A stretch of DNA of 64,000 bases from Shigella phage ESh25. The stretch is taken from sequence record ON528735. One strand, written 5' to 3'. The notes beneath the pieces are model-generated. The model was not told the origin of the DNA. It saw nothing but the letters and a program-made list of their open reading frames with translations, and did not search any database. The translations under genes and the position numbers were made by a program. Position 1 is the stretch's first letter; every line of letters starts with the position of its first letter. This document shows, piece after piece, positions 4,010 through 63,822 of this stretch.

Positions 4010-5720
4010 TAACCTTAATTGGTTTGTTGGTGTTGTTGAAGATAGAATGGACCCATTAAAATTAGGTCGTGTTCGTGTTCGTGTGGTTGGTCTACATCCA
4101 CCTCAAAGAGCACAAGGCGATGTAATGGGTATTCCAACTGAAAAATTACCATGGATGTCAGTTATTCAACCTATAACTTCTGCAGCGATGTCAGGAATTG
4201 GAGGTTCTGTTACAGGGCCAGTAGAAGGAACTAGAGTTTATGGTCATTTTTTAGACAAATGGAAAACTAATGGAATTGTCCTTGGCACGTATGGTGGAAT
4301 AGTTCGCGAAAAACCGAATAGACTTGAAGGATTTTCTGATCCAACTGGGCAATATCCTAGACGTTTAGGAAATGATACGAACGTATTAAACCAAGGCGGA
4401 GAAGTAGGATATGATTCCTCTTCTAACGTTATTCAAGATAGTAACTTAGACACCGCAATAAATCCCGATGATAGACCACTATCAGAGATTCCAACCGATG
4501 ATAATCCAAATATGTCAATGGCTGAAATGCTTCGCCGTGATGAAGGATTAAGATTAAAAGTTTATTGGGATACCGAAGGATATCCGACAATTGGTATTGG
4601 TCATCTTATCATGAAGCAGCCAGTTCGTGATATGGCTCAAATTAATAAAGTTTTATCAAAACAAGTTGGTCGTGAAATTACAGGAAATCCAGGTTCTATT
4701 ACAATGGAAGAGGCGACGACTTTATTTGAGCGTGATTTGGCTGATATGCAACGTGACATTAAATCACATTCTAAAGTAGGACCAGTCTGGCAAGCTGTCA
4801 ACCGTTCTCGTCAAATGGCGTTAGAAAATATGGCATTTCAGATGGGTGTTGGTGGTGTAGCTAAATTTAACACAATGTTAACTGCTATGTTAGCAGGAGA
4901 TTGGGAAAAAGCGTATAAAGCCGGTCGTGATTCATTGTGGTATCAACAAACAAAGGGTCGTGCATCCCGTGTTACCATGATTATTCTTACGGGAAATTTG
5001 GAATCATATGGTGTTGAAGTGAAAACACCAGCTAGGTCTTTATCTGCAATGGCTGCTACTGTAGCTAAATCTTCTGACCCTGCTGATCCTCCTATTCCAA
5101 ATGACTCGAGAATTTTATTCAAAGAACCAGTTTCTTCATATAAAGGTGAGTATCCTTATGTGCATACGATGGAAACTGAAAGTGGACATATCCAAGAATT
5201 TGATGATACCCCTGGGCAAGAACGATACAGATTAGTTCATCCAACTGGAACTTATGAAGAAGTATCACCGTCAGGAAGAAGAACAAGAAAAACTGTTGAT
5301 AATTTGTATGATATAACAAATGCTGATGGTAATTTTTTGGTAGCCGGTGATAAAAAGACTAACGTCGGTGGATCAGAAATTTATTACAACATGGATAATC
5401 GTTTACATCAAATCGATGGAAGCAATACAATATTTGTACGTGGCGATGAAACTAAGACGGTTGAAGGTAATGGAACTATCCTAGTTAAAGGTAATGTTAC
5501 TATTGTAGTTGAAGGTAATGCTGACATTACAGTTAAAGGAGATGCTACCACTTTAGTTGAAGGTAATCAAACTAATACAGTAAATGGAAATCTTTCTTGG
5601 AAAGTTGCTGGGACAGTTGATTGGGACGTTGGTGGTGATTGGACAGAAAAAATGGCATCTATGAGTTCTATTTCATCTGGTCAATACACAATTGATGGAT
5701 CGAGGATTGACATTGGCTAA
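3993..5720 (+). CDS. 5: gp5 baseplate hub / tail lysozyme (cell-puncturing device)
   Basis: 575 aa; central T4-lysozyme-like domain (YWDTEGYPTIGIGHLI); C-terminal VxGxxxxx beta-helix repeats. Confidence 0.95.
   Translation: MEMISNNLNWFVGVVEDRMDPLKLGRVRVRVVGLHPPQRAQGDVMGIPTEKLPWMSVIQPITSAAMSGIGGSVTGPVEGTRVYGHFLDKWKTNGIVLGTYGGIVREKPNRLEGFSDPTGQYPRRLGNDTNVLNQGGEVGYDSSSNVIQDSNLDTAINPDDRPLSEIPTDDNPNMSMAEMLRRDEGLRLKVYWDTEGYPTIGIGHLIMKQPVRDMAQINKVLSKQVGREITGNPGSITMEEATTLFERDLADMQRDIKSHSKVGPVWQAVNRSRQMALENMAFQMGVGGVAKFNTMLTAMLAGDWEKAYKAGRDSLWYQQTKGRASRVTMIILTGNLESYGVEVKTPARSLSAMAATVAKSSDPADPPIPNDSRILFKEPVSSYKGEYPYVHTMETESGHIQEFDDTPGQERYRLVHPTGTYEEVSPSGRRTRKTVDNLYDITNADGNFLVAGDKKTNVGGSEIYYNMDNRLHQIDGSNTIFVRGDETKTVEGNGTILVKGNVTIVVEGNADITVKGDATTLVEGNQTNTVNGNLSWKVAGTVDWDVGGDWTEKMASMSSISSGQYTIDGSRIDIG
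5425..5640 (+). repeat. 24-nt periodic coding repeat encoding the gp5 triple beta-helix (VEGNGTIL VKGNVTIV VEGNADIT VKGDATTL VEGNQTNT)
   Basis: Octapeptide periodicity visible in the translation and as repeated gttgaaggtaat / gttaaaggtaat units. Confidence 0.7.
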
Positions 5721-48118: not shown

Positions 48119-48122
48119 CAAT

Positions 48123-48140
48123 GGGGACCTTTCGGTCCCC
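48123..48140. terminator. hairpin GGGGACC-tttc-GGTCCCC between gene 54 (+) and the alt-region genes (-)
   Basis: 7-bp GC stem between convergent transcription units, followed by atatttttat. Confidence 0.6.
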
Positions 48141-48146
48141 ATATTT

Positions 48147-48437
48147 TTATTTACGGAATGAAATAAAAGCAGCAACTGAAGCAACAGAGGTTTCTTCAAT
48201 ATAAACCTCAATTTTTACCGGAGCTTCTGACTCAAATTTACCTGTTACTACACCTTGGAAAATACTTTCAGTCTGTTCTGGCTTTGAAAAATTTTCAGAA
48301 GGAAAAATTCCGAACTTTTTATCGGTTCCGAAAATTTTAATAAATTCATCATAAACTGCTTCATTGAAAGCGTTATCAGCAGGAATAACGCCTTCAACTA
48401 CAAGTTCTTGACCTAAAAAGCGTAAAGAAGATTTCAT
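48147..48437 (-). CDS. hypothetical protein (T4 alt.-3 position)
   Basis: 96-aa ORF with GAGGAA SD, immediately downstream of early-promoter cassette copy A. Confidence 0.6.
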   Translation of the reverse strand: MKSSLRFLGQELVVEGVIPADNAFNEAVYDEFIKIFGTDKKFGIFPSENFSKPEQTESIFQGVVTGKFESEAPVKIEVYIEETSVASVAAFISFRK

Positions 48438-48445
48438 TTTGTGTT

Positions 48446-48498
48446 CCTCATGTTATGTCAGTAAGATTACTATAACACAACACGAGGGACTTGTAAAC
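48446..48498 (-). promoter_or_regulatory. early-promoter cassette, copy A (-35 GTTTAC, extended -10 TGnTATAGT, 5' UTR and SD)
   Basis: Minus strand reads GTTTACAAGTCCCTCGTGTTGTGTTATAGTAATCTTACTGACATAACATGAGG; 52 of 53 identical to copy B at 63770-63822. Confidence 0.6.
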
Positions 48499-50555
48499 TA
48501 CATTTTGAACTTTTTAGACATTCCGTTGATGTTAACCAAAGAAGCTAAGATTTGAGAAACTTCGCTTTCCTCTTCTTTTGATTCTTCTACAAGGAATTGA
48601 TTAAATCCAGCCATTGGACGAAATTCACCAGTTTCCATTAGATGGTCGCCATCATATACTGATTCTTCTAATTGTTCAGAAGGAGGAACGATTGTACCTT
48701 CGATTAGATACTTATTATAAGCAGTTTCTTTCATAAAGTAAGTACTTACTTTATTAATCTTCAGTAAAATTCCACGTGGTAGAATAACTTCAGCTTCTGA
48801 TGGAAATCCTGACAAATGACCTGGAACGATAACTTTAACTCGTTCAGCTCCTTTAATTACCATACCCACGCTAGTTTCTGCATCTTCATTAGCATATGTA
48901 GAATGACTACCCATATGCATCAAATCTTCTGCATCAACGGAACCTTCTCCTTCACCAGAAAATACTGCGCCGGAATCATCTAGAGCCATATAGTTTTTAC
49001 CATGCTCACCGAAGATATTTGGTTTAAGCGATGTGGATACGAAGTTCTTGAAATAGAACATTTTGTTTTCAATGTTATGACGCAAAGTTTTAAATGTAAC
49101 TTCTTGTCCACGGTAAAGTGTAGTTCCTGGAGGAAGAACTGAACCTTTAGCGAATGCAGAATCAAGCGTCTCGATGTGCTTAATAGCACGTTCCATATAT
49201 TCTTCACGGGTAGAATCCGGTTTACCTAAAAGGAACGAGTTCATTTCAACATATGAATCTGCGCAATAATCTTCAATTACATCAGACTCAGCCTGAGTCA
49301 ATCCTTTTGGAGTTACTTCAGTGCTTGCATATTCATACGCCTGAGCAGCGGATTCATCAATTAATTTATAAATTCCATTCATTACAAATTGAATAATAGC
49401 TGTCTTTTCATCTGGCGTAGCTTTAGAACCTTTAACTAAATCATTGATAATTTTCTTAATAACATCAAAACTATTAGAAATATTAATATCAGCAAGATCG
49501 CTTAAAATTTTATCAGTTTTATAATCAAAGAATTCTTTATTCTTTAAATATTCTTGAGAACCTTGATATGTTATATCGCTCTGCAACTTGATAGATGGAT
49601 CACGTAAACGTGCATGGGCTAATGCAATATGATTTCGGAAGCTTTCTAGTTCATAATCGTTAGATTTAAAACGAGAAGCACTTCTCATACCACCGATAGC
49701 TCCTTTGCTGAAGTTTGAACCAATCTGAATAACGCCAGAGTTCATTGGTCCTTCTGCTTTATATACCGGAACTTTAGATTCAAACTCTTGATATTTCTTA
49801 GCAGCGAAGCTATCACCCTGAAGTGAAGCATCAACAGTAGAATATTGAGCTTGTGCTGCTAATCGACGACTAATTTTAGTTTTCTGAATAACAGCTTGAT
49901 CCGTACGCTTATCATTTTCTAAAGCAATAGAAGCAGCAACTGCGACAGCTTTAGGAACAGCATTACCTGTTTTAACGTCTACATAAACATCACCGACTTT
50001 CGATTCAACTTTTGTGAATAACTCAGTTGAAATAGGAGGTACACCTGGAATGTCTTCTAAATTGGCATTTTTACGGTAAACCATAATATATGCATATTTC
50101 TTATCATAGTCCCAGATTTCCTTTAAAAGAACATATCGACCTGCTCCTTTAGTACGTACTAAACGGTCAGCAATAACTTGCATTTGACGAGCAGCGCCGT
50201 TTGTTTTACTTTTTAGTACGCGGAATAGGCATGCATCAATTTTATACTGTTTCATTGTTTGAAGAGCAGTATCAAAAACCGCATTAATGACACCAATTGG
50301 ATTTCCACCCAAGTTTTTAAGCTTAACTAACGATAATTTCTCGTTGACGCCTATCATTACGATATGCATCATTTTGTCGCCTGGCTTAACGTTTTTATTC
50401 GTATCACCGCCAGAGGTGTATGTACAAAATCGAAATCCAGGAAGAACGCTTTCTTCACCGGCTTGAATAGCAAAAATTTGAGGTATTTTATGCTTAGGAT
50501 TTAAGTTAACAACCGGCGCCGAAGCGCCGTCAAATAATTCTGTAATAAGTTCCAT
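48498..50555 (-). CDS. Alt-like ADP-ribosyltransferase paralogue
   Basis: 685 aa; N-terminal about 190 aa closely parallel the adjacent Alt (MELITELFD...KYAYI...STELFTKVESKVGDVY); C-terminal R-S-E triad (TLYRGQ, FVSTSL, SEAEVILPRG); divergent middle. Confidence 0.75.
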   Translation of the reverse strand: MELITELFDGASAPVVNLNPKHKIPQIFAIQAGEESVLPGFRFCTYTSGGDTNKNVKPGDKMMHIVMIGVNEKLSLVKLKNLGGNPIGVINAVFDTALQTMKQYKIDACLFRVLKSKTNGAARQMQVIADRLVRTKGAGRYVLLKEIWDYDKKYAYIMVYRKNANLEDIPGVPPISTELFTKVESKVGDVYVDVKTGNAVPKAVAVAASIALENDKRTDQAVIQKTKISRRLAAQAQYSTVDASLQGDSFAAKKYQEFESKVPVYKAEGPMNSGVIQIGSNFSKGAIGGMRSASRFKSNDYELESFRNHIALAHARLRDPSIKLQSDITYQGSQEYLKNKEFFDYKTDKILSDLADINISNSFDVIKKIINDLVKGSKATPDEKTAIIQFVMNGIYKLIDESAAQAYEYASTEVTPKGLTQAESDVIEDYCADSYVEMNSFLLGKPDSTREEYMERAIKHIETLDSAFAKGSVLPPGTTLYRGQEVTFKTLRHNIENKMFYFKNFVSTSLKPNIFGEHGKNYMALDDSGAVFSGEGEGSVDAEDLMHMGSHSTYANEDAETSVGMVIKGAERVKVIVPGHLSGFPSEAEVILPRGILLKINKVSTYFMKETAYNKYLIEGTIVPPSEQLEESVYDGDHLMETGEFRPMAGFNQFLVEESKEEESEVSQILASLVNINGMSKKFKM

Positions 50556-50558
50556 GAT

Positions 50559-52652
50559 TTATCCTTGAACGAACTTGTAAGGCATGTTTGTAATATCTAT
50601 GCAAGACGCAATAATTCCAAGAGATGATTCTACTTTCTGTTTAACGTTTGATGAAACAAATGATGCAAAGTCAACTCTGTCTTCTATTTCAATATCACCT
50701 GTCATTGCAACTACTTCACCGGTTTCCATTAAATGGTCTCCGTCATAGATTACCGATTCGGTGAGCTCTTCCGTGGTCATAACTTCAGCTTGAATGAGTT
50801 TTGTATTATTAGATGTTGTTCCGTCATTATTAGAAGCATCAGTTATTTTATTAACTTTGACCATCAATCCACGCGGTAGAATAACTTCAGCTTCTGTTGC
50901 TATTCCGAGACTTCCTGGATATACAACATTAACTTTATGAGCTCCATCAATTGCCCATCCTATTTGAACTTTAACGTATTCAGGATTTTCTTTATACGCT
51001 CTTATTTCGTTTGGATTAATAGTTATTCCTTCTTCATTTTTATCAACTGTTAATTCATTGCGAGCTTCTGGTTCTAAAAGACCAATACCAGCATGTGTGA
51101 TTCCAAAACGTCCAAAAATGATAGGAGTTAAAGAAGTAGATACAAAATTTCTGAAGTAGAACACTTTATTTTTAACTAACGCTTCATATATAGGAGCAGT
51201 CATACTTTGAGCACGATAAACTGTAATGCCTTCTGGTATACGGTCACCATTTTCAAAAGCTGAATCTAAGTTATTTATAGCAGATTCAATTTCTTTTTCA
51301 CTCATTACATCATATCGTTCTGGATTGTAGCGGCCTAAAAGAAGATTATTGATGTCAGTATATCCTGAACCGCAATATTCTCTAATGCCACGCTTTTGCG
51401 ATGGAGTATATTTAGAACCATCACGGGCAATAGTAATATCAATCATTGGACCTGCACCAATTCCGGAAAAGCTATAAATCATTCGTTTGAGGAATTTAGT
51501 TTTTGCTGCGTTCCAAGAATTTTTAGTTATTTCTTCCCAGACTTCATCTGGCTGCCCTTTACGAGTTTTATTATGTTTATCAAGCCAATTATCTTTATAT
51601 TCTTCAAAGAATTGATTAACAGCTGCTGCGTATTTCTCTAAACATTTTATTGAAGTAGTTGGTTCATTTTTAATCGCATTAAGAATTACATCTTTAATTT
51701 TTTCAGAAACTTCATTAACCTCACTTTTTGAAAAGAATTTATAGTCATAGTGAAGTTCATCTGCAGTTCCTTCGGCAATAATTTTTGCTGCCTTAGTTTT
51801 AGAAGCTAATGAATTAATTCCAAGCTTCATTTCTTCTGCTTCGGGAATTAAAGGAGCGGTAGCAGGTTTATTAAAATTAGCTGCTGTAGATTCATACTTC
51901 TGGAATAATTCACTTTCAAATCTAGAAGATTCCAATGATTGACTTTGCGCAATTGCTCTACGGGAAATTTTAACTTTAACGATTACAGCTTGGTCAGAAC
52001 GTTTATCATTTTCTTGTGCAATAGATGCTGCAATTGCCTCATTTTTAGTTACTTGAGCTCCAGTATCTTTATTGATATAAACATCACCAACCTTCGATTC
52101 AACTTTAGTAAAGAGCTCGGTACTAATTTCAGGAACTCCTGGAATGTCTTCTAATGATACGTTTTTGCGATGTATAAGAATATATGCATACTTTTTATCG
52201 TAATCCCAGAGTTCCTTAAGAAGGACGTATCTGCCACCTGAACGACTACGGATAAGTCTATCAGCAATAACTTGAATTTGTCGAGCTTGGCCAGCAGTTT
52301 TAGACTTAAGAATACGAAGCATACAAGCATCAATTTTATATTGACGCATTGTTTGCATTGCAACAGTAAAAACTGAATTGATATAATTAATTGGGCTTGG
52401 ACCAAGACCTTTTAATTTAGCAATTGAACCTTTAGCAGTTAATGTAAAAGGAACAATATGCATCATTTTATCGCCCATCTTTAAATCACGATTAGTATCA
52501 CCTCCAGATGTATAGGTACATAAACGAAAGCCTGGTTGTTCAATTGCATCATCAACATGAACTGAAAAAATTTGCGGTATTTTCTTCTTTGGATTTAAGT
52601 TTGTAATCGGAAGAGTAGTATCTTCGTCAAATAATTCTGTAATAAGTTCCAT
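50559..52652 (-). CDS. alt: Alt ADP-ribosyltransferase (capsid-packaged ART)
   Basis: Start taken at the second Met (MELITELFD...); R-S-E triad (TVYRAQ, FVSTSL, TEAEVILPRG); minus-strand TATAAATA upstream; position adjacent to the ligase region as in T4. Confidence 0.8.
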   Translation of the reverse strand: MELITELFDEDTTLPITNLNPKKKIPQIFSVHVDDAIEQPGFRLCTYTSGGDTNRDLKMGDKMMHIVPFTLTAKGSIAKLKGLGPSPINYINSVFTVAMQTMRQYKIDACMLRILKSKTAGQARQIQVIADRLIRSRSGGRYVLLKELWDYDKKYAYILIHRKNVSLEDIPGVPEISTELFTKVESKVGDVYINKDTGAQVTKNEAIAASIAQENDKRSDQAVIVKVKISRRAIAQSQSLESSRFESELFQKYESTAANFNKPATAPLIPEAEEMKLGINSLASKTKAAKIIAEGTADELHYDYKFFSKSEVNEVSEKIKDVILNAIKNEPTTSIKCLEKYAAAVNQFFEEYKDNWLDKHNKTRKGQPDEVWEEITKNSWNAAKTKFLKRMIYSFSGIGAGPMIDITIARDGSKYTPSQKRGIREYCGSGYTDINNLLLGRYNPERYDVMSEKEIESAINNLDSAFENGDRIPEGITVYRAQSMTAPIYEALVKNKVFYFRNFVSTSLTPIIFGRFGITHAGIGLLEPEARNELTVDKNEEGITINPNEIRAYKENPEYVKVQIGWAIDGAHKVNVVYPGSLGIATEAEVILPRGLMVKVNKITDASNNDGTTSNNTKLIQAEVMTTEELTESVIYDGDHLMETGEVVAMTGDIEIEDRVDFASFVSSNVKQKVESSLGIIASCIDITNMPYKFVQG

Positions 52653-52675
52653 CATAGCCTCTCTAGTGTTTATTC

Positions 52676-52893: not shown

Positions 52894-54353
52894 AAACCAG
52901 TTACCTCATGAAAATCACCAAATACATCCTCGAATGTATTAGCTTTAGTTTTATCTTCACGTAAACGAATCGCAATCGGAAGAAATAATTTAACGTAATC
53001 AGTGCGGCCATCAGATTTTAACCAACCGTTGCATTCGCACTCTAGAATTTTTCCAATATAATAATTTTGGTTTTCCATAATGCGAGTACGGTCAAGTTCA
53101 TGTGATTTTACGCCGGCTTTGTCTTTTAAGCCTGAACCAGCATTTACCTTAATTTTTCCACACTCTGACTCAAGAATAAATCCACCCGCTTTAGTAGGGT
53201 CTTTACGGTGAGGATAAATTCCTACAATTTTTAAATCAACATCAATTACTTCTTTAAATTTATAAAGATTTTTTGAACGAGCATTTTCCCATAATCCATC
53301 GATATTTTTGAGAATAATACCTTCAAGACCTTGGTCAATATACTTTTTATAAATTACCTTAGCTTCATCTAGGTTATTTACTACCTGGTTTTCAATTAAA
53401 ATTACTTTATCATAACCTGATGTCATTTGTTCTAGTTTAGAAAAACGTACATCATATTTCAAACGAAATGCAGGAAGACCGTATATTTCTACCAACGGGA
53501 CATAATCCCAAACCTGAAACTTCATGCATTGAGCTTCTTTTTCAGAAATGGTTCCTTTTAAGGATTTATTGGCGATTCCATTAGAAGTAGTACGAGATTC
53601 CGCTACTTCGGCGAATTCTTTAGCTTTACTAATTTCAGGATAAGCATTAAAAAGAAAATCTAGGCCTTCTGGTTCCTTTTTAACTTGCTCATGGTATACC
53701 AATTCGCCATCAATTAACACACCTTCTGGATGAATCTGGCGGGCTTCAGCAGTCATTTTGATTAACTCTTCCTTAAGAAGATCTAATCCTAGATATTCAT
53801 TACCAGCTCGTGATAAAAGACGAACATCATCTAATTCATCGCCTCGGACTTCAGCAAAACACCGGGCTCCATCTGCTTTTAACTGCGCAAAGGCTGGAAA
53901 CTTGATATTCTTACTAATGCCCTTTTCATCATAAGAACTTGCCAGCATTTGAGGTTGTTCAGGAATTAAACCTGGCCAAACTTTGTTTGCAATAGATACT
54001 GAAGCACCGCATTCAAGGTCTCGCATCATCACTCGACGCAAAACTTCAACATCATCCTTTTTACCATCAGTGATATATCCAGTTAATTCCTCAATTGCAG
54101 CATTTCCAGTCAATTTCCGAGTAGCTAACGTGAATTCAATGAAATCAAGCATATCGGTAATGGTCAGCATTCCAAAACTCTGGGTAGCAATACCAGGTTT
54201 AGGCCATTTCTTGATATAATACTGTAACCCACGAGAATAAGTCAGACGATATACTCGTTTAAGCAATTCATTATCTTTATTCTTTTCAAGAATTGCTTGC
54301 TTCTGCTTAGTTGATCCAATAGATGCTATTTCATTCAGAATTTTAAGAATCAT
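52890..54353 (-). CDS. 30: ATP-dependent DNA ligase gp30
   Basis: 487 aa; adenylation motif KADGARC; begins MILKILNEIASIGSTKQKQAILEKNKDNELLKRVYRLTY. Confidence 0.95.
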   Translation of the reverse strand: MILKILNEIASIGSTKQKQAILEKNKDNELLKRVYRLTYSRGLQYYIKKWPKPGIATQSFGMLTITDMLDFIEFTLATRKLTGNAAIEELTGYITDGKKDDVEVLRRVMMRDLECGASVSIANKVWPGLIPEQPQMLASSYDEKGISKNIKFPAFAQLKADGARCFAEVRGDELDDVRLLSRAGNEYLGLDLLKEELIKMTAEARQIHPEGVLIDGELVYHEQVKKEPEGLDFLFNAYPEISKAKEFAEVAESRTTSNGIANKSLKGTISEKEAQCMKFQVWDYVPLVEIYGLPAFRLKYDVRFSKLEQMTSGYDKVILIENQVVNNLDEAKVIYKKYIDQGLEGIILKNIDGLWENARSKNLYKFKEVIDVDLKIVGIYPHRKDPTKAGGFILESECGKIKVNAGSGLKDKAGVKSHELDRTRIMENQNYYIGKILECECNGWLKSDGRTDYVKLFLPIAIRLREDKTKANTFEDVFGDFHEVTGL

Positions 54354-56999: not shown

Positions 57000-57067
57000 T
57001 TTTATTCTCCGAGATGTTTAATTGCGGTACAGGTATATAATATCATATCCTGTACCAAAGTAAACAA

Positions 57068-57400
57068 TTATTTTACTACTTTCCAGTGCTTCATGTCAAG
57101 TTTACCAACTTTTTTCATCTTCTCAATTAAGCGTTCGGCACGTTGGCGAGCTGTAACATAATACCATTCGCCTAATTCATTTTGTTCAATTTTTCCAACG
57201 ATTACTGTATTCAATTCATAAATCCAACCAGTAAAGAAATTATGAACTTGAATTGTAAAGGTGAAATCTGTTCCCATACCTTCTGTTGTTTCTACTTCAA
57301 TAATATCACCTTCAACTGCCATTAAGAACCACATAGTTTCATCATATTTACCATTGAAGCATTTAGTTTTAACTGTAGCGTTCAGATTAATCGTTTTCAT
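57068..57400 (-). CDS. hypothetical protein (T4 30.8 position)
   Basis: 110-aa ORF; GGAG SD; upstream GTTTAC early-promoter-like motif around 57428-57457. Confidence 0.55.
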   Translation of the reverse strand: MKTINLNATVKTKCFNGKYDETMWFLMAVEGDIIEVETTEGMGTDFTFTIQVHNFFTGWIYELNTVIVGKIEQNELGEWYYVTARQRAERLIEKMKKVGKLDMKHWKVVK

Positions 57401-57487
57401 TTTATTCTCCTTTGTTTGTGTAAGATAATACTATCACAAAGGAACCATACTGTAAACAACTTTATGCAATCTTTGGAAAATAAAAAA

Positions 57488-60463: not shown

Positions 60464-60524
60464 TTTGTTTTCCTCATTTGTTTGGTAGAGCTATAATATC
60501 ACAACTCTACCGTAAAGTAAACTA

Positions 60525-62621: not shown

Positions 62622-62917
62622 TTACATTTATCCTCTTTTAACTCTTGACGATAATAACATATCATAGTTTTTTGGTCATGTACATATCGTTTTACATCAT
62701 TAAGCCAAATACGAAATTCCTGGGAATCTTCAAATGGCATACCGACCCAAGCTTTACCATCAATAACTTTAACTTGCCAAGATAGTTTAGCTTCATCATA
62801 TGACTTTATCTGTACAGGCCAATTAGGATGAACTGTTTCTTTCTTTACTTCTAGAGGCTTTGTCGAACAACCAGCTAGAAGACCGATAGATAATATTACT
62901 GCTGATAGTCTAATCAT
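62618..62917 (-). CDS. predicted lipoprotein (signal peptide plus lipobox LLAGC)
   Basis: N-terminus MIRLSAVILSIGLLAGCSTKP: hydrophobic h-region followed by L-A-G-C, a lipobox match. Confidence 0.6.
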   Translation of the reverse strand: MIRLSAVILSIGLLAGCSTKPLEVKKETVHPNWPVQIKSYDEAKLSWQVKVIDGKAWVGMPFEDSQEFRIWLNDVKRYVHDQKTMICYYRQELKEDKCK

Positions 62918-63267
62918 TTAGAAAGGTCCTGGATGTCTTCTGCGAACTTGTTGAAGGAGTTGTTGATTTGTTTTTCAACCAATCCTGGCTTACGAGCCAC
63001 CACATCCGCCTTCTTTGCATCTTTGCGCAGTTTTTCATTTTCACGCTCAATATCAGCAATCGCCTCACGATTTTTATTATTCATCGCATCAATATAATTA
63101 TACTGAATTCGCAAATTATTTAATGCTAAGGCGTTTTCATTGGCCGTTTTTGTAATTTCTACAACAGACGTTTCTAATCTTTCTACCTTATTTTTTAAAA
63201 TAATAGATGTTCCGCCAAATGCTATTACAAGTAATAGCAATCCAGCTGTAAAATTACTTACATGCAT
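62914..63267 (-). CDS. predicted membrane-anchored coiled-coil protein
   Basis: N-terminal hydrophobic helix FTAGLLLLVIAFGGTSIIL followed by charged helical region; 117 aa. Confidence 0.55.
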   Translation of the reverse strand: MHVSNFTAGLLLLVIAFGGTSIILKNKVERLETSVVEITKTANENALALNNLRIQYNYIDAMNNKNREAIADIERENEKLRKDAKKADVVARKPGLVEKQINNSFNKFAEDIQDLSK

Positions 63268-63761
63268 AAAGTTTTAATAACCTCTATAATATCGTCTTGA
63301 GAAAGACCGTTAATTAAAATATGATGTTCAGCCGGAGATTTAGAAATTTTAAAGCACGCCGCAACATCTTCTGCCATATCCGATGCGCTACGATTTGGAT
63401 TACTAATTCCAAGACGATGCTTTCCTGTCAAAGGATTAACGATGATATAGCATTTGCAGCTATTGATATGAACATTAGGTTGAGTCTGATTAATAAACAC
63501 TTCACAATCATACTTAGCGAGTTGATTTTCTAAAAAGACTTTCATCTCCTCAACCGCATCAGGAAGCATATCACGGGCTTGCTCAAGATGACGATTTCGA
63601 TATTCTTTAATGGTCGTTTTCCGCTTGACTTGCTTAGCTAAATCTTTCTTAAGATCGGTGATATATCCAACTCGACGATTTCCTTTGAATACAGAAATCC
63701 CATCTGTAGTATCACCGTATGCTTCAACGACCATTTCAGTAGTAATAAGCTGCAAATCCAT
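63258..63761 (-). CDS. alc: Alc (blocks transcription of cytosine-containing DNA)
   Basis: 167 aa from the second Met (MDLQLITTEMVVEAY...); GAGGA SD; T4 position between pseT region and rnlA. Confidence 0.75.
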   Translation of the reverse strand: MDLQLITTEMVVEAYGDTTDGISVFKGNRRVGYITDLKKDLAKQVKRKTTIKEYRNRHLEQARDMLPDAVEEMKVFLENQLAKYDCEVFINQTQPNVHINSCKCYIIVNPLTGKHRLGISNPNRSASDMAEDVAACFKISKSPAEHHILINGLSQDDIIEVIKTLCM

Positions 63762-63769
63762 CATAAAGT

Positions 63770-63822
63770 CCTCATGTTATGTCAGTAAGACTACTATAAC
63801 ACAACACGAGGGACTTGTAAAC
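63770..63822 (-). promoter_or_regulatory. early-promoter cassette, copy B (-35 GTTTAC, extended -10 TGnTATAGT, 5' UTR and SD) upstream of alc
   Basis: Minus strand reads GTTTACAAGTCCCTCGTGTTGTGTTATAGTAGTCTTACTGACATAACATGAGG; one mismatch relative to copy A. Confidence 0.6.

Follow-up and report, generated by a model that had tools for sequence, protein, structure and literature searches.

A duplicated PeSL-type early-promoter cassette at alt.-3 and alc of a T4-like phage, with a hairpin that may block translation on read-through transcripts

The direct repeat described here is a duplicated cassette of the PeSL (promoter-early stem-loop) type and not a new kind of element. The promoter and the hairpin are well supported at both of its copies, one upstream of alt.-3 and the other upstream of alc. 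We infer that read-through RNA crosses both copies and is translationally blocked there: with moderate confidence, we believe that the hairpin of this PeSL-type cassette would prevent the early gene that follows it from being translated on read-through RNA.

Results

The repeat and its genomic setting

The window (the whole 64,000-nt stretch of DNA that was analysed) belongs to a T4-like phage of the genus Tequatrovirus, and is 94-97% identical to T4 positions 118000-136514. Within it, a 54-bp sequence is present at 48445-48498 (copy A) and at 63769-63822 (copy B), 98% identical and with one mismatch, the sole difference being a T at 48467 in copy A and a C at 63791 in copy B. A preliminary description of this DNA had reported two near-identical copies with one mismatch at 48446-48498 and 63770-63822, and sequence comparison bears this out exactly; the 54 bp are that 53-bp stretch together with one further shared base. 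No match to the repeat arose by chance in 100 dinucleotide-preserving shuffles of the window, this is the only pair of long, high-identity, non-coding direct repeats in the 64 kb, and the sequences flanking copy A and copy B are unrelated on both sides. A search for more copies, which the preliminary description had proposed, was run on the window at up to 3 mismatches and on database records; it returned no third, diverged copy in the window, and the records show two places each.

The genes concerned are all on the minus strand, as are both cassettes, and the identities of the alt.-3 and alc reading frames were confirmed by comparison with annotated T4 and its relatives. Copy A takes up the space from the stop codon of an alt paralogue (48498-50555, 685 aa), a probable source of read-through transcripts, to the leader of alt.-3 (48147-48437, 96 aa); it serves alt.-3, with which the leftward transcription unit ends. 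The stop codon of the alt paralogue, TAG at 48500-48498, abuts copy A, and its G doubles as the first base of the copy A -35 hexamer. Copy B, for its part, is flanked by the rnlA stop codon, TAA at 63828-63826 and 3 nt upstream of the copy B -35 hexamer, and by the leader of alc (63258-63764, 168 aa), which encodes an inhibitor of host transcription. The 25 nt upstream of each cassette are A-rich coding sequence.

The region beside copy A has its own history of duplication. Two full-length alt (ADP-ribosyltransferase) paralogues lie in tandem at 48498-50555 and 50559-52655 on the minus strand (685 and 698 aa, 3 nt apart); identity between them is about 70-78% in stretches and reaches 97% over the first 31 nt. 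In T4 there is a single alt, with the remnants alt.-1 and alt.-2 where the window has its second alt copy. On the other side of alt.-3, between it and the convergent gene 54, the terminator scan calls on both strands a bidirectional hairpin resembling an intrinsic terminator (48121-48142), with a 9-bp G+C-rich stem (ATGGGGACC..GGTCCCCAT), a T-run after it on the plus strand (the gene 54 side) and a weakly T-rich tail on the alt.-3 strand. This hairpin would end transcripts that cross copy A.

The preliminary description had also noted that recombination between the copies could delete the 15 kb between them. Such an event is physically plausible, and cassettes of this kind are known recombination sites, but the 15.3-kb interval holds both alt paralogues and genes 30, 31, rIII, cd and pseT. 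Genes 30 and 31 are essential, so a phage with a simple 15.3-kb deletion should be inviable, and no such deletion was observed; the repeat itself poses no threat to genome stability.

Two early promoters

Both copies carry GTTTAC, an 18-nt spacer ending in TGT, and TATAGT, that is, a sigma-70-type TTTACA-17-TATAGT promoter with an extended -10 (TG) that matches the promoter consensus at 10 of 12 positions. In copy A the promoter occupies 48469-48498 on the minus strand, with its -35 element GTTTAC at 48498-48493, the TG at 48477-48476 and the -10 element TATAGT at 48474-48469; in copy B it occupies 63793-63822 on the same strand, with the -35 element at 63822-63817 and the -10 element at 63798-63793. 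The start sites would fall about 7 nt after TATAGT, near 48462 in copy A and near 63786 in copy B. The Shine-Dalgarno (SD) sequence GAGGA precedes the start codon ATG by 8 nt at alt.-3 and by 5 nt at alc. The earlier reading of each copy as a T4-type early promoter with leader and SD, placed directly 5' of alt.-3 and alc, agrees with the sequence and with T4 annotation.

The timing of these genes in T4 is in keeping with that reading. Omics data place alt.-3 and alc among genes with early RNA and early protein, alt among late genes, and rnlA among genes with early RNA and late protein (PMC9697503); middle promoters are located upstream of rnlA (PMC2988021 Table 1). Since alt.-3 is early and the gene upstream of it, alt, is late, copy A has to serve as an early promoter of its own.

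A hairpin joining promoter spacer and SD

In both copies the sequence of the promoter spacer can base-pair with the leader and the SD, a feature that the preliminary description had overlooked. The 5' arm of copy A, CCUCGUGUUGUGUU (48474-48487, minus strand), lies in the promoter spacer and provides the anti-SD strand, and the 3' arm, GACAUAACAUGAGG (48446-48459, minus strand), contains the SD GAGG at 48449-48446; above them 48471-48468 pairs with 48463-48460 in an apical 4-bp stem. In the predicted fold of copy B the 5' arm is at 63798-63811 and the 3' arm, with the SD GAGG at 63773-63770, at 63770-63783 (both minus strand), and this helix can be extended on its outer side by pairing AAGUCC with GGACUU. 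The result is a helix of 14 bp, including 3 G.U pairs, topped by a stem of 4 bp, and the -10 box extends from the top of the long helix across the internal loop into the 5' strand of the cap stem.

The predicted structures are stable, with minimum free energies of -23.0 kcal/mol for copy A and -27.3 kcal/mol for copy B (z -5.35 and -4.65), and none of 200 shuffles folded as stably as the native cassettes. The predicted start sites are within the 3' strand of the apical stem, immediately before the 3' arm, and RNA that begins there, without the 5' arm, has no significant structure (z about -0.3). Opening the region from SD to AUG would cost 1.7-3.4 kcal/mol on the transcript from the cassette's own promoter, as against 9-12 kcal/mol on read-through RNA. 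The Tequatrovirus cassette also folds more stably on the sense strand than on the antisense strand (-23 to -24 versus -15 to -17 kcal/mol), a difference that favours a structure formed in RNA.

The spacer is conserved along with the leader because the two pair in an SD-containing RNA hairpin. The preliminary description had offered another reason for the conservation, namely a leader kept identical for a shared RNA-level regulator site. Such a site would bind a regulator acting in trans, be it an sRNA or a protein such as RegA or RegB. In its favour, the transcribed leader, ACUGACAUAACAUGAGGA, is identical between the window copies, with T4 copy A differing from it at one position, G47A. Yet we consider such a site highly improbable, and nothing in the analysis supports it. 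The conserved block runs 30 nt upstream of the predicted start, into spacer that is not transcribed, and intramolecular pairing explains this; there is no GGAG RegB motif, the SD being GAGG; and nothing in the window matches an Rfam family at gathering score, the only hits being chance hairpin matches with E of 1 or more. Beyond the genus, it is the pairing and not the sequence of the alc leader that is conserved, and a 2010 review records no characterised trans-acting sRNA in T4 (PMC3014915).

Variation within Tequatrovirus

Both copies are present in each of about 500 Tequatrovirus genomes, T4 included (copy A in nearly all), so the repeat is old, and the suggestion in the preliminary description that it reflects recent copying does not hold. 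Among roughly 25 copies read for variants within the genus, 7 of 7 substitutions in the stem keep the pairing (U.G to U-A, G.U to A-U, C-G to U.G, A-U to G.U), an outcome with a chance of about 0.02 by our own estimate, and the changes outside the stem lie in loops or in the bulge. Stem variants are private to one copy; the loop change G39A alone is found in both copy types, in different genomes. Ongoing concerted evolution of the two copies finds no support here, since the stem variants are confined to one copy. Because divergence within Tequatrovirus is low, these variants argue only weakly for selection on the copy A hairpin itself.

alc leaders in other genera

The region upstream of alc was taken from 12 annotated phages and 43 IMG/VR contigs. 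It yielded 22 distinct main-type leaders from about ten lineages, including Gelderlandvirus, Karamvirus, Dhakavirus, Winklervirus, Bragavirus and Klebsiella phages, in which an anti-SD arm immediately 3' of GTTTAC forms a helix of 9-15 bp with the SD; the SD is inside the helix in all 22. The arm sequences vary, and the anti-SD tracks the SD variant: CUCC goes with GGAG, and CCUC with GAGG.

A covariance model was built on eight alc leaders from outside Tequatrovirus and used to align 19 distinct non-Tequatrovirus leaders. In this alignment, which is fitted to the model's structure and made up of related sequences, 94.5% of the cells are paired, as against 77% in shuffles (0 of 500 as high) and 34-49% in slid registers; 8 of 13 pairs are changed on both sides, and there are 44 compensatory cells as against 12 in shuffles, a number that none of 500 shuffles reached. 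The same model, with no Tequatrovirus sequence in it, also picks up the two cassettes of the window, with scores of 30.1 and 28.6 bits (E of 3e-4 and 7e-4 in 280 kb). RNAalifold predicted no structure on a plain MAFFT alignment of the 22 alc leaders because the helix registers are shifted by 1-3 nt, a difficulty resolved by per-sequence registers and the covariance-model alignment. Judged from these comparisons, the alc hairpin is conserved by covariation across genera.

The covariance model also matches a third place in the window, at 57398-57457 on the minus strand (25.8 bits). This is the homologue of T4 promoter 130310 upstream of 30.8, where GUUCCUUUG pairs with CAAAGGAG(A), covering the SD.

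Some lineages depart from this pattern. In Kanagawavirus and one other lineage (L051/L069) the alc hairpin leaves the SD just outside the stem; in Mosigvirus and a few others (L070-L073) the alc leaders have a small spacer hairpin only; and VR25-type phages have an extra ORF at the position of the alc leader. Given these exceptional lineages, a hairpin near the promoter, and not occlusion of the SD, could be the feature under selection.

One function that such a hairpin might have is that of a terminator or attenuator, or of a 3'-end stabiliser for the upstream gene (alt or rnlA), in which case the SD would be overlapped only because so much is squeezed into about 60 nt. The authors who described PeSL cassettes proposed a terminator or attenuator role for the stem-loop (PMC2839356, PMC4122927), and one RB49 stem-loop reduced downstream lacZ as strongly as rrnB T1 (PMC2839356). 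In most genera the hairpin starts 5-10 nt past the upstream stop codon, much as a stable hairpin right after a stop codon marks an intrinsic terminator; the few lineages that keep the hairpin while excluding the SD, and the other T4 and window early promoters with hairpins over the -10 box only, point the same way. The stem here, however, is not G+C-rich and has no U-tract, and neither hairpin is followed by a T-run or called by the terminator scan, so that an intrinsic terminator can be set aside. Enclosure of the SD in every main-type alc leader, with an anti-SD that co-varies with it, is also hard to square with a packing by-product, and alt.-3 has a canonical terminator 300 nt further on. 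We therefore regard this role as unlikely for the two cassettes of the window, and continue to favour a translational function of the hairpin.

The inverted repeat might instead act as DNA, as a recombination site or a protein-binding palindrome, in which case the near-identity of copies A and B would be a record of conversion and the hairpin would have no role in expression. PeSL cassettes do recombine, and form mini-circles in RB49 and phi1 (PMC2839356). The early cassettes of T4 fall into paralogous families (identity 0.98 for alt.-3/alc, 0.88 and 0.81 for the next pairs, against a median of 0.37), and the alt region beside copy A is plastic, with two alt paralogues here and remnants in T4. 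The comparison of sense and antisense stability is neutral outside Tequatrovirus, where the arms are near-perfect Watson-Crick palindromes; because these arms are strand-symmetric, that test leaves a DNA-level role possible. Against it, the 3 G.U pairs of the Tequatrovirus helix are A.C mismatches on the opposite strand, the variants retain RNA-type pairing including wobble pairs, and at alc the position and content of the anti-SD arm are conserved while its sequence turns over, which argues for selection on pairing with the SD and not for a fixed protein site. A purely DNA-level role thus seems to us improbable, more so than a terminator, and pairing of the SD in RNA remains our preferred reading.

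alt.-3 leaders and the origin of copy A

In five other genera the flanks of the alt.-3 leader are orthologous to those in Tequatrovirus (the alt C-terminus KFKM*, CATGAGGA and ATGAAATC) and the promoter core is different. Four of the five have a small hairpin within the spacer, for example CCACAAGGATGTGG, with the SD free; in the fifth, represented by Kanagawavirus Q7622, the spacer pairs with the alt.-3 start-codon region instead. Because these five genera carry a different core, the alc-type cassette at alt.-3 is specific to Tequatrovirus. The boundaries of the repeat coincide with two motifs common to all such cassettes, GTTTACAA at the -35 element and CATGAGGA at the ribosome-binding site, and the comparison across genera is compatible with replacement, at alt.-3, of the patch between the shared -35 and SD motifs; no recombinant junction was observed. 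By parsimony, copy A would be an old patch copy of the alc cassette, the direction of copying being from alc to alt.-3.

Two observations concern leaders outside Tequatrovirus. In Kanagawavirus Q7622 (locus L032, 305-412) the spacer of the alt.-3 early promoter, CGAAUGAACG, is complementary to AUGCGUUCAUUC, the stretch with the start codon and the first few codons of alt.-3. The 107-nt segment has a folding energy of -32 kcal/mol and looks like an independent occlusion of the alt.-3 initiation region. In Mosigvirus the alc cassette (L057) and the alt.-3 cassette (L030) are alike, both of the small spacer-hairpin type and sharing the pattern GTTTACAAACAC..GGA..GTG.TACTAT..ATCAA.AACA.GAGGA, so a likeness of the alc and alt.-3 cassettes may recur outside Tequatrovirus.

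Discussion

Relation to known elements

Cassettes of the PeSL type have been described in T4-like phages (Arbiol et al. 2010 PMC2839356; Comeau et al. 2014 PMC4122927), and the present repeat resembles them in most respects. Like them, it is intergenic, stretching from one gene's stop codon to the ATG of the gene after it, with an SD before that ATG; it carries a strong early promoter of the sigma-70 type, TTTACA-17-TATAGT here and TTTACW-N17-TAYWAT in the PeSL PST/T4 pair; and its stem-loop contains G-T pairs and lies across the -10 box, as those of PeSL cassettes can. PeSL cassettes also occur in several similar copies per genome that are thought to exchange by recombination, next to plastic regions, and here there are two copies, of which copy A abuts the variable alt duplication. 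There are differences as well. The SD here is in the 3' arm and the anti-SD in the spacer, whereas in the PeSL papers the stem-loop does not include the SD; the copies are separated by 15 kb, with essential genes and not a small ORFan between them; and there is no T-run. The PeSL papers discuss termination and attenuation only, and the word 'translation' is absent from the 2010 text (PMC2839356).

The arrangement also recalls T4 genes e, soc, 49 and I-TevI, which have internal-promoter hairpins at their initiation regions (McPheeters et al. 1986; reviewed in PMC3014915). In those genes, as is predicted here from folding and comparison, the SD is held in a helix on upstream transcripts, and a promoter at the 5' strand of the helix gives an own transcript without the inhibitory strand. 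The difference lies in the promoter: those genes use late promoters (TATAAATA), which delay translation to late infection, whereas the internal promoter here is an early sigma-70 one, both genes being early in T4, and the predicted effect is the reverse, translation restricted to the immediate-early period. Neither alc nor alt.-3 is in the reviewed list of hairpins (PMC3014915). Our literature search found no T4 start-site map and no described leader hairpin for alc or alt.-3; the two promoters, or the likeness between them, may nevertheless have been noted before, for example in the 2003 T4 genome review (PMC150520) or the PeSL supplementary lists.

Proposed mechanism

Consider a cell in the first minutes of infection. 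Host sigma-70 RNA polymerase would start about 7 nt after TATAGT and produce a leader of 22-25 nt that contains the 3' arm only. This short leader would leave the SD GAGG free, so that alt.-3 and alc could be translated at once. RNA that reads through from upstream, by contrast, would carry both arms; the copy A spacer arm would pair with its SD-bearing partner, the SD would be locked in the 14+4 bp helix, and no translation would follow. At copy B, the sources of read-through RNA would be rnlA and the middle promoters upstream of it; at copy A, the source would be alt, a late gene. The logic would be that of T4 genes e, soc, 49 and I-TevI inverted in time, with an early promoter inside the inhibitory hairpin. 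In evolutionary terms, copy B would be the resident element of alc, its design shared by many T4-like genera, and copy A would go back to a Tequatrovirus ancestor in which a patch of the alc cassette, transferred by gene conversion or recombination, replaced an older alt.-3 promoter.

If a terminating ribosome is taken to unwind roughly 6-9 nt, the CCUC of the anti-SD arm, 11-17 nt beyond the upstream stop codon, is out of its reach, and translational coupling through a ribosome that terminates there seems unlikely.

If the block is real, it would offer a simple explanation in cis for how proteins of the Alc type are confined to the first minutes despite ongoing upstream transcription, and it may help to explain mismatches in timing between mRNA and protein in T4 omics data. 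Copied promoter cassettes would then bring a translational insulator with them, and recombination could rewire the timing of a gene in one step. For annotation, conserved inverted repeats at T4-type early promoters should then not be taken for terminators by default.

Other early promoters

A scan of the T4 early regions showed that hairpins across the -10 box are common. Among 28 strong T4 early promoters, 13 pair the SD with the spacer, where spacer shuffles lead one to expect 10.0 (p about 0.11); this excess is not significant, and because pyrimidine-rich spacers readily re-pair with the SD, we do not claim a genome-wide excess. Nonetheless, it is a tentative idea, and one we hold with less confidence than the block at the two cassettes, that many T4-like early promoters sit inside hairpins with an untranscribed anti-SD spacer, and that their genes are translated only from their own short transcript. 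Candidates in T4 are the promoters of regB, denV, motB.2, 30.8, nrdC.8, ndd.4, alc and alt.-3. If such a rule were true, shut-off of the early promoters would also halt synthesis of these proteins while the abundant delayed-early, middle and late read-through RNAs stay silent, and a unit of about 55 bp, comprising promoter, insulator and ribosome-binding site, could carry its timing programme to another gene by recombination, as it seems to have done from alc to alt.-3.

Several individual promoters are worth recording. Spacers of the anti-SD kind, with folds of -18 to -24 kcal/mol, are found in T4 (NC_000866) at 62797 (regB), 65413 (denV), 8218 (motB.2), 53943 (nrdC.8) and 166807 (ndd.4) (loci L097-L099); the two at 53943 and 166807 share 81% identity and still pair in spite of their differences. 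In the window, the promoters at 60493-60522 and 57037-57065 (minus strand) correspond to T4 Pe positions 133331 and 129918. Both have inverted repeats of 7-8 bp around the -10 box, GGTAGAG..CTCTACC and GGTACAGG..CCTGTACC, with the SD outside the main stem; they belong to the same class of cassette, in a different subclass.

Elsewhere in the window, on the plus strand at 5436-5603, a 24-nt coding repeat is present in six head-to-tail copies that encode octapeptides of the form VxGxxxxx (VEGNGTIL VKGNVTIV VEGNADIT ...), which we take to resemble the beta-helix of the gp5 tail needle.
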